Source: a virus (Duplodnaviria > Heunggongvirae > Uroviricota > Caudoviricetes). From it: 26,478 nucleotides of DNA. The stretch's first letter is position 1. Every line of letters starts with the position of its first letter. The notes under the pieces are model-generated. The model did no database searches. It was not told the DNA's origin and saw only the letters and a program-made list of their open reading frames with translations. A program made the translations under genes and the position numbers. The stretch is from the IMG/VR virus record IMGVR_UViG_2721755724_000002. The stretch is one strand, 5' to 3'. Below are positions 7,663 to 21,067 of this stretch, one piece after another.

Positions 7663-7731
7663 TAAGTACGGGTGCGTTGAGGATGCCTGACACATCAGAG
7701 GTGGCGGGGGATTTCTCCCCCGCCGGGTCTC

Positions 7732-15057: not shown

Positions 15058-15783
15058 TCACTTTTCCGACACAATACGACTGGAGGAATCGACAATCTGA
15101 CGGACAATGTCCTGGTGCTTGTTCAGCTCACGCAGCGCGGCGCAGACTCGCTCCCACTTCTGGACATGACTTTTCGCCCGGCGCAGTTCGCGGTTTGCCA
15201 TTTGCAGCGATGGTAAAATCAGGTCATTGGCTCGCGTTTCAGTGAACGATGGTAGTGACTGCACAATGTCCCCCACAGTATCTGTTTTAATTTCTTCCTG
15301 TGTTGCCGCTTCCTGTACTGGTAACGCAACACCGGCTGGCTGAGGAAAGCCTTTACCAGGTGTTTTAACTACCGATACAACTTTCGGCTCTGCTGGTAAA
15401 TTACCGTCCGGCAGGCAGTAACGAAATTTACCGTTCTGATTTACGCGAATCAGACGACCTTTGCTGATGGCCATAGCCAGCGATGAGTTCACCCTGCGGG
15501 AAGTAATTCTGAATATCAGTGCAAGTTCATCAGCCGCTTTAGGGCCATGCTGTTCAATCGCCTCGATCAGCATTTGCGCTGTCACTTTAGAAGCCTGTGC
15601 CACAGATGCGTTTTCGTCGGTTTGAGTCAACCACCACATCGGGCCCTTGTTATCAGCTTCCCCGCGACGCTTCAGTTTCCACAGCTCGTTAATCGCCTCA
15701 TCCCGGGTCATTCCCAGACGTGCTGCCACTTCCTGGGAAGAGGCTTTTCCCATTGCTTTCAGTGCGTCAAAAACGGTCTCCAT
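15058..15783 (-). CDS. Phage replication-region protein (DUF1627-like, tentative)
   Basis: ATG at 15783 (METVFDALKAMGK...) preceded by GGAGG; 241 aa; N-terminus resembles the conserved small domain common downstream of dnaC-like genes in lambdoid prophages. Confidence 0.6.
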   Translation of the reverse strand: METVFDALKAMGKASSQEVAARLGMTRDEAINELWKLKRRGEADNKGPMWWLTQTDENASVAQASKVTAQMLIEAIEQHGPKAADELALIFRITSRRVNSSLAMAISKGRLIRVNQNGKFRYCLPDGNLPAEPKVVSVVKTPGKGFPQPAGVALPVQEAATQEEIKTDTVGDIVQSLPSFTETRANDLILPSLQMANRELRRAKSHVQKWERVCAALRELNKHQDIVRQIVDSSSRIVSEK

Positions 15784-16552
15784 TAAAATTTCCTCCCGGT
15801 AAAAATTGCTTCTCAATTCCTGGCTGACCAACATTCGGGCGCCAGCTCTCCCAGTTAAAATTCACCCATCGCCCGCCGTTCATGGTCATCCGATCCATAA
15901 TCCTCTCGCCGAGCAATGTTTTCATGGCCTCATAGTTCAGGTTTGTCAGCATCCCCACGCTGCGGATCGACGCTGTCCGGCGATCAACAATCTGGTGCAG
16001 TACCACCTGCTCGTTTTTTGTCTCGCGCTGAATGCCAATTTCATCAAGAACCAGCAGATCCACTTCGCACAGTTCCCGCAAAAATTTTTCGCCTGATTGC
16101 CCGTCGTCATAGCTGGCGTGTAGAGCACTCATAACATCAGCCACGGTAACCACAATCACTGTCTGACCGTTTTTCAGCAGGCGATTCCCGATAGCCGCCG
16201 CCAGATGGTTGTTTCCGGTACCAGGTTTTCCGCTGAACGCAAAATTTGTACACCCGACCATCAGTTCATCGGCGATGGATTTCGCCTGGCTCAACGCGTA
16301 TCGCTGGCCGTCGTTCTGCACCTGGTAATTCGAAAACGAGCATTTGCGGTGCAACGGCTGGATGCCGGAGCGATTCAGAATTTTTTCCACCCGCAACTGA
16401 CGATTCTGGCGATTGATCTCCTCGCAACGTTTCTGGCCTTCTGCAAGTTGCCACTCGCGCCACTCCGCCACCGTCCTGAATGGCGCGGTTACATGTGACG
16501 GGGCCAGTCTGCGGATACGTTCCAGAACGCCGCCTGTCGCAATATTTTTCAT
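15767..16552 (-). CDS. ydaV: DnaC-like helicase loader (replication protein)
   Basis: 261 aa; clear DnaC similarity: NRSGI.PLH..CSF.NY, Walker A FSGKPGTGNNHLAAAIGN, Walker B LLVLDEIG, VDRR, GMLTNLNYEAM; ATG at 16552 overlaps the upstream stop. Confidence 0.8.
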   Translation of the reverse strand: MKNIATGGVLERIRRLAPSHVTAPFRTVAEWREWQLAEGQKRCEEINRQNRQLRVEKILNRSGIQPLHRKCSFSNYQVQNDGQRYALSQAKSIADELMVGCTNFAFSGKPGTGNNHLAAAIGNRLLKNGQTVIVVTVADVMSALHASYDDGQSGEKFLRELCEVDLLVLDEIGIQRETKNEQVVLHQIVDRRTASIRSVGMLTNLNYEAMKTLLGERIMDRMTMNGGRWVNFNWESWRPNVGQPGIEKQFLPGGNFNGDRF

Positions 16553-16558
16553 GGTCAG

Positions 16559-17347
16559 TTACCCCCTGAAGCCTGGCGGGATCGCACTGTCCGGCAACGA
16601 GACGGTGTTAACCTGTCGGAGCAACGTCTCAGGCCGAACACCTTTCGGCGCGAACAAGCCCTGGTATTCATTGGCGATGCTGTGTCGAATCACCTGCTCA
16701 GGGGTAAAACCCTGCTGGCGGAATTTTTCCAGTTCCCGTATCGCCCCGTTAGCGCCCTGCTCCGTTCGAATCGGTTTTCGCAATGCCTGCCTGAACTGGA
16801 CCCACTCATTCCAGAGTGTTTCTGGCAACCAGTCGGGCAGAGCAATGGCCTCCGGCTCGAATTTTTTAGACGCTCGTTTTTGCCGAGGGGGATTTAGGGG
16901 GAGATCAGTATTTTTATCTTCCTCTTCCTCTTCCTCTGGTAACGCTTTTTGATCCGTTTGTGTAACGCTGGCAGCGTTACCTTTTCGCTTCAGTTCGCGT
17001 ATTTTTGTAACTCTCTCGTTTGTAACCGCCCGTTTTTTCGAGCTTTTTCCGTTATGACGCTCAAAGTTAGGTAGTGAAAGCACTCCATCACTTTCGACCA
17101 GCCATCCAACCTGAATTAACGCATCAGCAAAACCAGCCATAAAAGTGATACGGTCTATTGCACTTTTTGTAACGCCTCGAGCGTTACACTCTGCGTTACC
17201 ATCAATCATTTGTTGATCCGCCCATGCCCAGAATCGAATGACCTTCCCTAATGCGGCATCTGGATCAATATTAAGAATCTCAGCAATCCTGAATATTTCC
17301 GGTTTATCCGGCGTAATAACTTCGAGCTTTATCCAGTTTGAAGCCAT
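16559..17347 (-). CDS. ydaU: Replication-initiation-associated protein (YdaU-like), contains repeated palindromes
   Basis: ATG at 17347 (MASNWIKLEV...) preceded by AGGTGA; acidic run EEEEEED; coupled to the dnaC-like gene. Track ORF begins at TTG 17425. Confidence 0.7.
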   Translation of the reverse strand: MASNWIKLEVITPDKPEIFRIAEILNIDPDAALGKVIRFWAWADQQMIDGNAECNARGVTKSAIDRITFMAGFADALIQVGWLVESDGVLSLPNFERHNGKSSKKRAVTNERVTKIRELKRKGNAASVTQTDQKALPEEEEEEDKNTDLPLNPPRQKRASKKFEPEAIALPDWLPETLWNEWVQFRQALRKPIRTEQGANGAIRELEKFRQQGFTPEQVIRHSIANEYQGLFAPKGVRPETLLRQVNTVSLPDSAIPPGFRG

Positions 17348-17381
17348 ATTGTTTTCACCTTGTAACGCTCGCAGCGTTACA
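16961..17381. repeat. Three copies of a palindrome TGTAACGC-N3-5-GCGTTACA (iteron- or operator-like)
   Basis: 16961-16981 TGTAACGCTGGCAGCGTTACC; 17169-17189 TGTAACGCCTCGAGCGTTACA; 17361-17381 TGTAACGCTCGCAGCGTTACA (just upstream of the ydaU start); extra half-sites at 16939-16946, ~17020-17031 and 17193-17200. Confidence 0.6.
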
Positions 17382-17425
17382 TTTAACTGATACCGAACAA
17401 AACGCTCCGGCACGATTAATTTCAA

Positions 17426-17848
17426 TCAATGCACTACGACAGAATCGCCGGATGATCCGCCGCGGCTGAAATGCGCTTTCCGGTAAACGGCCTGGACTGC
17501 ATCATCATGCGCATCAATTGCCGTATTCAGCGCTTCCTGAGCCGCCAGTAATGCGCGACGTTCCAGGGTGTCAAAAACGCTGAGGCGGTGTCGCAGTTCG
17601 CGCGGAAGAATTGCCAGGATTGCAGGAATCAACTTCTGGATTTTTTCCCTTTGCGCCTTTGTTTCACCTTTTAACCAGCGGTGATAGATGTTTTGCTGAT
17701 TGTTCCAGTCCTTGCCTGGCGCCAGGGCTAATTCACTCTCCCCCTGGCGCAAATATTCTTCAGTAATTGCGTTGGCAACCCACGCCTGACCTTTTTCGGC
17801 AGCCAGAGCTAACAACACTGATTCAATGTGCTCATGCCTGATTTTCAT
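17426..17848 (-). CDS. ydaT: YdaT-family prophage toxin-like protein
   Basis: ATG at 17848 (MKIRHEHIESVLLALAAEKGQAWVANAITEEYLRQG...) preceded by AGGGT; 140 aa, matching Rac YdaT as recalled; overlaps the end of ydaS. Confidence 0.8.
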   Translation of the reverse strand: MKIRHEHIESVLLALAAEKGQAWVANAITEEYLRQGESELALAPGKDWNNQQNIYHRWLKGETKAQREKIQKLIPAILAILPRELRHRLSVFDTLERRALLAAQEALNTAIDAHDDAVQAVYRKAHFSRGGSSGDSVVVH

Positions 17849-19297: not shown

Positions 19298-19749
19298 CGA
19301 TTAAAACGTCTGCTCCTACTGTTCCAGAATAACTTCATAAAGTGGGAGTATTTTTCGGTGACGAGATAATAAGAACAGTTTGCGCCATCACTCTGATGTT
19401 GAATGATGCCCTTCCGTTCTAATTTTTTCATAACCGGGTTACGGCAAGGAGAAGTGATAATAAGATTTCCTGTTTTAAGGAAATCTTTAAATACAGCGAT
19501 TTCTTTCTCAGATAAACGAAGCAATACTCGTTGCTCTGGTAGCAATGAATAATGTTTTTGAATATGTGCTCGCAATCTTGAGAAGGAAATGGCAACCACG
19601 AAAGAAAAGGCAAAAACTATAATCTGAAAGAGCCAGGTTATTTCAGTATAAGCATTAAATACGACAGCAAACTCTTTCGGTATCAGCCAGAGAGTGAGGC
19701 CAAAAATGATAATCGTGTACATAAGTCTTTCGATGTGGCTCTTTAGCAA
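19294..19749 (-). CDS. sieB: Superinfection exclusion protein B-like membrane protein
   Basis: Two N-terminal TM segments (TIIIFGLTLWLIP; WLFQIIVFAFSFVVAISF) and position between immunity region and kilR as for Rac sieB; track start is TTG 19749, first ATG at 19722, neither with a clear RBS. Confidence 0.6.
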   Translation of the reverse strand: MLKSHIERLMYTIIIFGLTLWLIPKEFAVVFNAYTEITWLFQIIVFAFSFVVAISFSRLRAHIQKHYSLLPEQRVLLRLSEKEIAVFKDFLKTGNLIITSPCRNPVMKKLERKGIIQHQSDGANCSYYLVTEKYSHFMKLFWNSRSRRFNR

Positions 19750-20966: not shown

Positions 20967-21067
20967 AAGAAATAGCCTGCGTATGGCGCAGGCTATGAAC
21001 AGTGTGTATCCGGCAAGATCATTCACTGAACAAAACGAATTTTAATCTGAGTTGAGGTTAAAAAACA

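Follow-up and report, generated by a model that had tools for sequence, protein, structure and literature searches.

In bacteriophage lambda the replication origin, ori, lies inside gene O, and initiation there involves the O protein, its iterons, an A+T-rich region and loading of DnaB via P. The replisome organisers of the Phage_rep_org_N type, such as G38P of SPP1 and those of lactococcal P335-type phages, also bind an origin situated within their own gene. An origin inside the gene of an initiator or replisome organiser, with iterons matched to the N-terminal domain of the encoded protein, is an already known kind of system. Here we analyse 26,478 nucleotides of DNA (the window; IMG/VR record IMGVR_UViG_2721755724_000002, Caudoviricetes), which represent a Rac-type prophage, and in particular three near-identical palindromes with the consensus GTAACGC-N5-GCGTTAC that lie in and directly upstream of a gene called ydaU by its position and the initiator gene in the following. 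Comparison of this locus with its relatives leads us to consider it likely that the palindromes are initiator-binding sites and that they form an origin for this Rac-like prophage within the initiator gene itself. Such an origin is what a specialist would expect at this place; the breadth of its occurrence and the cleanness of the DNA-level signal exceed that expectation. The elements concerned are, in window coordinates:

16559 to 17347, minus strand: initiator gene (positional ydaU), 262 amino acids, ATG at 17347.
16961 to 16981: site B (P1), TGTAACGCTGGCAGCGTTACc, composed as TGTAACGC-TGGCA-GCGTTACc; at the end of the N-domain, in the linker; codes for G-N-A-A-S-V-T.
17168 to 17188: site A (P2), TGTAACGCCTCGAGCGTTACA, composed as TGTAACGC-CTCGA-GCGTTACA; within the N-domain coding region; codes for C-N-A-R-G-V-T.
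17361 to 17381: site C (P3), TGTAACGCTCGCAGCGTTACA, composed as TGTAACGC-TCGCA-GCGTTACA; in the intergenic region between ydaT and the initiator gene, non-coding.
17355 to 17360, minus strand: Shine-Dalgarno sequence AGGTGA of the initiator gene, directly 3' of site C on the mRNA.
17193 to 17199: extra half-site GCGTTAC, gene strand GGTAACGC, 12 bp from site A.
16938 to 16945: half-site GGTAACGC, gene strand GCGTTACC, coding for A-L-P; the last half-site before the purine tract.
17006 to 17011 and 17021 to 17026: two weak half-sites TGTAAC flanking site B, degenerate and poorly conserved.

A preliminary description of the window had noticed three near-identical palindromes about 200 bp apart, two of them inside the gene and one 14-34 nt upstream of it, together with isolated half-sites, and all of this was reproduced. 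A search for the palindrome pattern with up to three mismatches returns only P1, P2 and P3 in the window (0.04 expected), the strict pattern has two matches (0.00 expected), and the start-to-start distances are 207 and 193 bp. The outermost base of P1 is mismatched, leaving a core of GTAACGCTG/CAGCGTTAC with arms of 9 nt. With the gene (16559-17347) encoded on the minus strand, P3 comes to lie 14-34 nt upstream of its ATG, where it abuts the Shine-Dalgarno sequence. The isolated half-sites at 16938-16945 and 17193-17199 are equally clear; the TGTAAC pair at 17006 and 17021 is weaker and is assigned as half-sites with low confidence. The heptamer GTAACGC occurs ten times in the 26.5-kb window compared to 1.95 expected copies, a number reached in 0 of 100 shuffles, and eight of the ten copies fall within 442 bp (16939-17380). 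This is a short, specific motif in several copies, clustered and, as described below, conserved, which is the pattern looked for in an iteron origin. P1 obtained an antisense terminator-like score, but the counts of such sites equal those expected from shuffled sequence.

Relatives of the initiator were collected as 16 independent lineages found by protein similarity (42-70% identity over the N-terminal 120-135 residues). Distant blastn searches against phages contributed BUCT554, a Klebsiella phage and TL-2011b, and protein-seeded searches with one genome per species contributed Pantoea, Pectobacterium, the planctomycetes Stieleria and Roseiconus, Coralloluteibacterium and several metagenome-assembled genomes; the source contigs of six metagenomic proteins were located as well. 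The hosts thus range from Enterobacteria to Planctomycetes. In the motif scan of the relatives, of the type suggested in the preliminary description, the intragenic sites are kept in 16 of 16 lineages. Site A lies about 150-160 nt into the gene (+149/+161) and is perfect in 14 lineages, including a perfect copy at +173 in the lineage L014, and has a single mismatch in the other two; the extra half-site beside it is also present in the Pantoea and Pectobacterium relatives. Site B is found as a palindrome or as an array of half-sites about 340-400 nt into the gene in every lineage and is followed by a further GCGTTACC one helical turn on, or two turns on in the window's clade. The Pusillimonas array at this position consists of three half-sites in one orientation followed by two in the opposite one with a phasing of 11-12 bp. 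The upstream palindrome, site C, is limited to the Escherichia/Shigella (Rac-like) and Pantoea-like clades. Stieleria magnilauensis (NZ_CP036432.1) carries two identical initiator loci (L010 and L011) at about 7.98 and 8.02 Mb, some 44 kb apart, which suggests a duplicated or tandem prophage.

The sites are also specific to this gene. A scan of IMG/VR with a pure DNA pattern, i.e., two palindromes 165-195 bp apart, returned at least 120 loci, and after resolving ambiguous cases all listed ones lie in genes encoding this N-domain. The complete 40-kb genome of phage BUCT554 contains paired half-sites only in the initiator gene (two pairs), its other GTAACGC copies being scattered singles at about chance level. 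The plasmid collection yielded two records only and no small plasmid; one of the two is a circular 41-kb Pusillimonas 'plasmid' that turned out to be a lambdoid phage genome, in which the palindromes are confined to the initiator gene and the replication genes are this gene and an adjacent ATPase gene only. The complete genomes examined (BUCT554 and the Pusillimonas replicon) showed no second repeat cluster suited as an origin. The cumulative GC skew of BUCT554 has its minimum near the gene and was discarded as evidence for an origin, because the same point coincides with the switch to divergent transcription.

Conservation within a coding region raises the question whether the DNA or the encoded protein is selected. 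P1 and P2 of the window share their reading frame and the encoded peptide, each palindrome can form, as any palindrome would, a 9-bp RNA hairpin, and site B together with the adjoining tract lies exactly where relatives exchange their C-terminal domains, so that one might regard the conservation as a by-product of a peptide motif (NAxSVT), of an mRNA hairpin or of a recombination joint for C-domain swapping. The codon usage speaks against a peptide motif: in ten divergent lineages two to five codons occur in each of the 29 invariant degenerate amino acid columns outside the half-sites, whereas the four invariant columns inside the half-sites use a single codon each, namely Gly GGT, Asn AAC, Val GTT and Leu TTA. 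Synonymous positions are therefore frozen only inside the half-sites, and the leucine of the half-site at 16938-16945 is TTA in ten of ten lineages. At the edge of the sites the residue varies (Cys, Gly, Arg or Ser) while the nucleotides xGT are constant. Moreover, the window, Pantoea and the planctomycetes translate site B as x-N-A-x-S-V-T, whereas several gammaproteobacterial lineages and the BUCT554/TL-2011b group translate it in another reading frame, shifted by one, as V-T-x-x-A-L; site C is not translated at all. A hairpin is contradicted by the observation that the divergent set has 11 arm deviations without a single compensation and that site B arrays include direct repeats, which cannot pair; it is therefore a specific 6-7-bp sequence that is selected rather than a structure, and RNA structure was rejected as the selected feature for lack of covariation and because of the direct repeats. 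A module joint does not account for site A, which falls midway within the N-domain; as a secondary consequence, the conserved origin DNA may undergo recombination. Among 83 close Escherichia/Shigella relatives the arms are intact in 83 (site C), 82 (site A) and 81 (site B), and every site shows several spacer haplotypes, four in the case of the 5-bp spacer of site C. We consider the by-product explanation highly improbable, and the comparison of sequences indicates that the half-sites are under DNA-level purifying selection. The loop peptide (GNAxSVT/GHAxGVT) and the linker peptide (ALPEKRREEK) apparently owe their existence to the binding sites in the DNA that encodes them.

Directly beside the last half-site lies a second conserved element that was absent from the preliminary description:

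16917 to 16937, minus strand: homopurine tract AGAGGAAGAGGAAGAGGAAGA, (GAGGAA)3, coding for EEEEEE, directly after the last half-site.
16901 to 16916: short A+T-rich stretch, gene strand GATAAAAATACTGATC, after the tract.

A homopurine run follows the last half-site in all relatives. In most lineages it is AGAGAAGAGAAGAGAAGAGAAG, (GAGAA)4-8, and this form is also kept in lineages with 60-63% G+C, in which AGA arginine codons are unusual; the BUCT554 group, like the window, has (GAGGAA)3 instead, and Pantoea and Pectobacterium have degenerate GAA-rich runs. Duplex stability was calculated by a nearest-neighbour scan of 30-mers over the gene ±300 bp in 18 lineages. In 11 of them the 30-mer of lowest stability falls in the tract zone, and in another five, among them the window, this zone reaches at least the 99th percentile of instability. 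L008 and L113 gave no valid output, as a purine run of 14 nt was not found in them; in L008 the stability minimum, at +422, is within the equivalent zone. By these calculations the purine repeat and the A+T stretch are among the most easily melting places in the gene, and the tract is a candidate DNA-unwinding element. As a mirror repeat, it could conceivably adopt an H-DNA structure. Its exact pentamer periodicity points to a cause at the DNA level. In one planctomycete locus (L010) and two IMG/VR contigs (L121 and L197), (GAGAA)n is followed by a (CA)6-7 run coding for THTHTH, which is a second simple repeat of unusual structural potential.

The tract extends beyond the relatives of the window. 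A scan for the tract alone found AGAGAAGAGAAGAGAAGAGAAG in at least 120 viral contigs (IMG/VR L226-L344; examples are L245, L287, L263, L255, L240 and L272) at about residues 100-175 of an open reading frame (ORF), and the 85 nt before the tract hold a repeat array of at least three copies in 99 of 115 listed loci compared to 5% of control windows. The ORFs concerned carry, among the matches listed, N-domains of the MAGDWIK type as well as Phage_rep_org_N, Lin1244_N and DUF1376-like N-domains, so on sequence grounds the tract looks like an origin core common to several initiator families. Half-sites of the GTAACG type precede the tract in only 28 of 119 listed loci; most others show a different short motif in a like arrangement, for example GTCCGCA..GTCCGCA..GCGGACA..GCGGACC followed by AGAGAAG, and further array motifs are GTCACGC, GTAGAC, GTGACG and GGGGAC. 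N-domains of the MAGDWIK type, present in 78 of 115 listed loci, share 24-41% identity with that of the window (E values of 1e-7 to 1e-34).

These other arrays are informative as to which protein reads the sites. Where a clear array motif could be defined, its hexamer recurs at least twice upstream in the part of the gene that encodes the N-domain in 54 of 62 loci, with a mean of 3.3 copies per 319 bp compared to 0.16 expected and 0.26 in an equally long downstream control. In the GTCACG class the upstream cluster is at the position of site A and the loop peptide changes from GNAxSVT to GHAxGVT. The motif thus co-varies with the N-domain subfamily at both clusters, and the joint switching of the two clusters with each other and with the N-domain is as expected if the N-domain reads the half-sites. 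A comparison of residues between half-site classes found none that cleanly separates GTAACG from GTCACG, and many differences to the GTCCGC class.

Another binder could be proposed, namely YdaT, the Cro- or RacR-like regulator or a host protein, as the genes for YdaT, a Cro-like protein and a helix-turn-helix (HTH) repressor lie immediately upstream and YdaT-family proteins are described to bind inverted repeats (PMC9986795). We regard this as quite improbable: from Enterobacteria to Planctomycetes these neighbouring regulators are not conserved across the site-bearing loci, while the N-domain is the only constant partner and the half-site switches with its subfamily. Moreover, the published YdaT operator, TTGATT-N6-AATCAA, is a different sequence, and YdaT was rejected as the binder, with matches to its operator pattern occurring at chance level in the window (five compared to 3.2 expected). 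One sequence at the ydaT stop codon, ACGATTAATTTCAATCAA (17412-17429), agrees with this pattern at 16 of 18 positions (10 of 12 specified bases), which is a chance-level frequency.

The features of the encoded protein and of its downstream neighbour are as follows:

16979 to 17347, minus strand: N-domain, residues 1-123, without Pfam family, winged-helix-like in the model.
16562 to 16843, minus strand: C-domain, residues 169-262, like the DnaT C-terminal domain.
15767 to 16552, minus strand: ydaV, DnaC/IstB-like ATPase (PF01695, 1.7e-18), annotated as ydaV in near-identical genomes.

With hmmscan the 262-residue protein matches no Pfam family at E≤0.01, but it matches PHROG 2509, 'replication initiation protein', over its entire length (E 4e-89, residues 1-262 on profile positions 1-277), and an 'O-like' PHROG with its middle and C-terminal part only. 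The C-terminal 94 residues (169-262) align to structures of the DnaT C-terminal domain (2ru8 and 9zbt, E 1e-4 to 3e-4). The NCBIfam DnaT model is matched by the last 19 residues only (E 0.005, far below the cutoff), and the DnaT C-terminal family PF17948 is not matched by the window protein at Pfam level, although it is by relatives (1e-11 to 1e-14). The AlphaFold2 model of residues 1-135 has a mean predicted local distance difference test score (pLDDT) of 71, with 80-94 in the core, and shows helices followed by a beta-hairpin at residues 84-91, from which the N-domain is predicted with medium confidence to be winged-helix-like. The low-confidence parts of the model are the surface loop encoded by site A (residues 52-57) and the segment encoded by site B (residues 124-135), a disordered linker; sites A and B are therefore located where the protein tolerates arbitrary sequence. 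The N-domain family comprises 6,487 cluster representatives (50% identity) at E≤1e-3 and 4,051 at E≤1e-10, most of which are annotated as 'hypothetical protein'. The C-terminal domains differ among relatives, many being of the DnaT type PF17948, and downstream of the initiator gene a DnaC-like gene in the window is replaced by genes for DnaB, a primase-helicase or a lambda-P-like loader in distant loci, so the constant unit across loci consists of N-domain, half-sites and tract. Shigella and E. coli copies of the gene are often truncated or frameshifted (e.g., 210 residues with an altered C-terminus; L006 from Shigella flexneri, P0003-P0015), and all three palindromes are still intact in them.

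That the palindromes are dyad-symmetric protein-binding sites acting as origin elements, as the preliminary description had proposed, is thus supported by the comparative evidence, and a mechanism can be outlined. The recognition unit would be the 7-bp half-site GTAACGC, read by the winged-helix-like N-domain of the protein of the same gene. An inverted pair of half-sites, 12 bp from centre to centre, would bind a dimer, and satellite half-sites at 11-12 bp (23 bp in the window's clade) would extend the complex. The core would be formed by site B with the following half-site (16938-16981) against the purine repeat (16917-16937) and the short A+T stretch. Initiator bound at site B might open the tract; DNA loops may connect it with site A, at a distance of about 200 bp, and with site C, at about 400 bp, and these two would serve as auxiliary sites for looping or for a higher-order assembly. 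The DnaT-like C-domain and the DnaC-like YdaV, presumed to be the helicase loader, could then bring in the host DnaB, and through site C the initiator might throttle its own expression. The sequences themselves establish the presence of the sites, their selection at the DNA level, their restriction to this gene family, their joint change with the N-domain, the low duplex stability of the tract and the replication genes in the surroundings; which protein binds, that the DNA is unwound and looped, that helicase is loaded and that the initiator regulates itself is what we infer.

The last of these functions could also be the only one. The palindromes might merely be autoregulatory operators that block transcription from the early promoter or translation of the initiator's own mRNA, with the origin elsewhere or restricted to the direct-repeat part. 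Plasmid Rep dimers use inverted repeats as operators, the sites are dyad-symmetric, all of them are confined to the 5' half of the replication genes in the operon, and site C abuts the Shine-Dalgarno sequence; the predicted RNA hairpin of site C leaves the latter unpaired. However, the upstream site is missing in most lineages, whereas no lineage lacks the two intragenic clusters or the low-stability tract, promoter prediction found no promoter-like site adjoining the palindromes, and an alternative origin-like repeat cluster was not found in the complete genomes examined. Site B, in addition, has the classic position of a lambda-type origin, at the interdomain linker and about 370-400 nt into the gene. 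For these reasons operators alone seem unlikely to us, while site C may be an operator in addition to being part of the origin, because it touches the ribosome-binding site and is clade-specific.

Several points weigh against an origin composed of initiator-binding sites. No binding or replication experiment for the allele of the window or its relatives was found in the literature, although most subscription papers lay outside the search. The palindromes are dispersed at distances of about 200 bp, and in iteron plasmids inverted repeats are typically operators and not origin iterons. The tract of the window has 50% G+C and its zone reaches only the 99th percentile of instability, the minimum being at +52; furthermore, the tract signal could be partly at the protein level, since the encoded linker is rich in Glu, Lys and Arg and therefore purine-rich anyway by codon need. 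The medium confidence of the protein model is a further weakness, and as Rac-type prophages are defective, the element may no longer fire.

Going beyond the window, its palindromes might represent one specificity class of a very large, unannotated superfamily of origins embedded in the codons of their initiators, in which two clusters of half-sites, one in a surface loop and one in the linker, switch together with the DNA-reading domain beside a near-invariant (GAGAA)n mirror repeat. The repeat, common to at least four N-domain families (that of the window, DUF1376, Phage_rep_org_N and Lin1244_N) across bacterial phyla, would act as a common element for unwinding or helicase entry, possibly via a triplex (H-DNA). 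We put this forward tentatively, as possible rather than probable.

The window shares its general context with other Rac-type prophages, a stretch of E. coli 13P484A being 99.6% identical; this counterpart is flanked by ttcA/intR/xisR/recET/kilR/sieB and by ydaV/DUF1627. The module on the minus strand runs from a Cro-like gene (PF14549) via ydaT (PF06254) and the initiator gene to the DnaC/IstB-like ATPase gene ydaV, and is adjoined on the plus strand by a divergent HTH repressor gene. The longest ORFs of the ydaV-like gene (15767-16552) and the DUF1627 gene (15058-15834) overlap by 68 nt (15767-15834); the true start of the latter is probably further inside its ORF, as the annotated homologue has 726 nt. 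Three long perfect palindromes unrelated to the GTAACGC motif occur elsewhere in the window, at 20972-20996 (ATAGCCTGCG-N5-CGCAGGCTAT), 19462-19487 (AAGATTTCCT-N6-AGGAAATCTT) and 7703-7724 (GGCGGGGGA-N4-TCCCCCGCC).

In the searchable literature we did not find a description of this N-domain family with its half-site, of the (GAGAA)n tract, of the two-cluster layout with concerted switching or of a site kept in two reading frames, which is weak evidence of novelty as most subscription papers lie outside it. If correct, our reading defines the origin of a large group of temperate phages and prophages at the sequence level, and gives a rule for prediction: a hexamer arrayed before (GAGAA)n with a second cluster upstream would indicate both the origin and the specificity of its initiator. 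It would also provide natural specificity variants (GTAACG, GTCACG, GTCCGC and others) to understand how the N-domain reads DNA, a clear case of a DNA-level constraint that dictates protein sequence and, for E. coli, Rac-type prophages with at least two non-homologous initiator/origin alleles.

The second of these alleles is found in the closest described relative, ydaU-ydaV of the E. coli K-12 Rac prophage. Both are the same type of prophage in the same integration context (intR, recET and kilR at ttcA), with the same gene order of a racR-like gene, a cro-like gene, ydaT, the initiator gene and ydaV. The name ydaU given to the window's gene in the preliminary description holds for its C-terminal half, which is 81% identical in amino acids to the K-12-type allele (L004) over residues 139-262, but not for its N-domain: the window protein lacks DUF1376 (PF07120), which L004 matches at 5.4e-24 and which is annotated for K-12 YdaU, and the two N-domains are unrelated. 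The K-12 Rac prophage has no GTAACGC in 6 kb and neither a (GAGAA)n nor a (GAGGAA)n tract. Absence of the palindromes from homologous ydaU genes had been named as an argument against their function, and GTAACGC is indeed absent from K-12 ydaU; read literally, this test would have misfired, since the K-12 protein has a DUF1376 N-domain and the gene its own repeats, whereas the true homologues of the window's N-domain keep the sites. The repeats of MG1655 ydaU (L217, 1421119-1421976) lie at +393 to +460 and consist of CAGATGTTCAAACA twice and an inverted TGTTTGAACAT, followed by A+T-rich DNA; the same set is found in L004 at 1900-1971, and its position in the linker is equivalent to that in the window. 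These linker repeats are a candidate for the core of oriJ. This origin is mentioned in PMC3945230 and in the reference list of PMC11014345, and the literature searched contained passing mentions only and no description of oriJ at the sequence level.

The comparison with lambda O rests on layout and not on sequence. In both systems the origin, a candidate in the window, lies inside the initiator gene at the segment encoding the interdomain linker (residues 123-145 here), dyad-symmetric repeats presumably read by the N-domain of the initiator adjoin a region that melts easily (by calculation in the window), the C-terminal half hands over, presumably so in the window, to a loader encoded just downstream, and iterons and N-domain are swapped together between alleles. 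Unlike lambda O, the window protein does not match Phage_rep_O (PF04492), its half-sites form two to three dispersed clusters about 200 bp apart in place of four contiguous iterons, its putative melting element is a homopurine penta- or hexanucleotide repeat and not a plain A+T block, and a DnaT-like C-domain and a DnaC/IstB-like loader take the place of the partnership with P. The replisome organisers and the DUF1376 and Lin1244_N proteins are similar in that their genes in IMG/VR carry repeat arrays followed by the identical (GAGAA)n at about residues 100-175; they differ in the folds and families of their N-domains, none of which is matched by the window protein, and the characterised examples have Gram-positive hosts. 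Likeness to the winged-helix Rep proteins of iteron plasmids (RepA, RepE and pi) consists in a winged-helix-like reader, in the mixture of inverted and direct half-site arrangements and in what may be the same dual role, with an inverted repeat near the gene start as operator and an array at the unwinding element as origin. Finally, the C-terminal domain of the window protein resembles that of E. coli DnaT, but while DnaT has no sequence-specific origin-binding domain and functions in PriA-dependent restart, this domain is fused in the window protein to what would be a specific reader of DNA.

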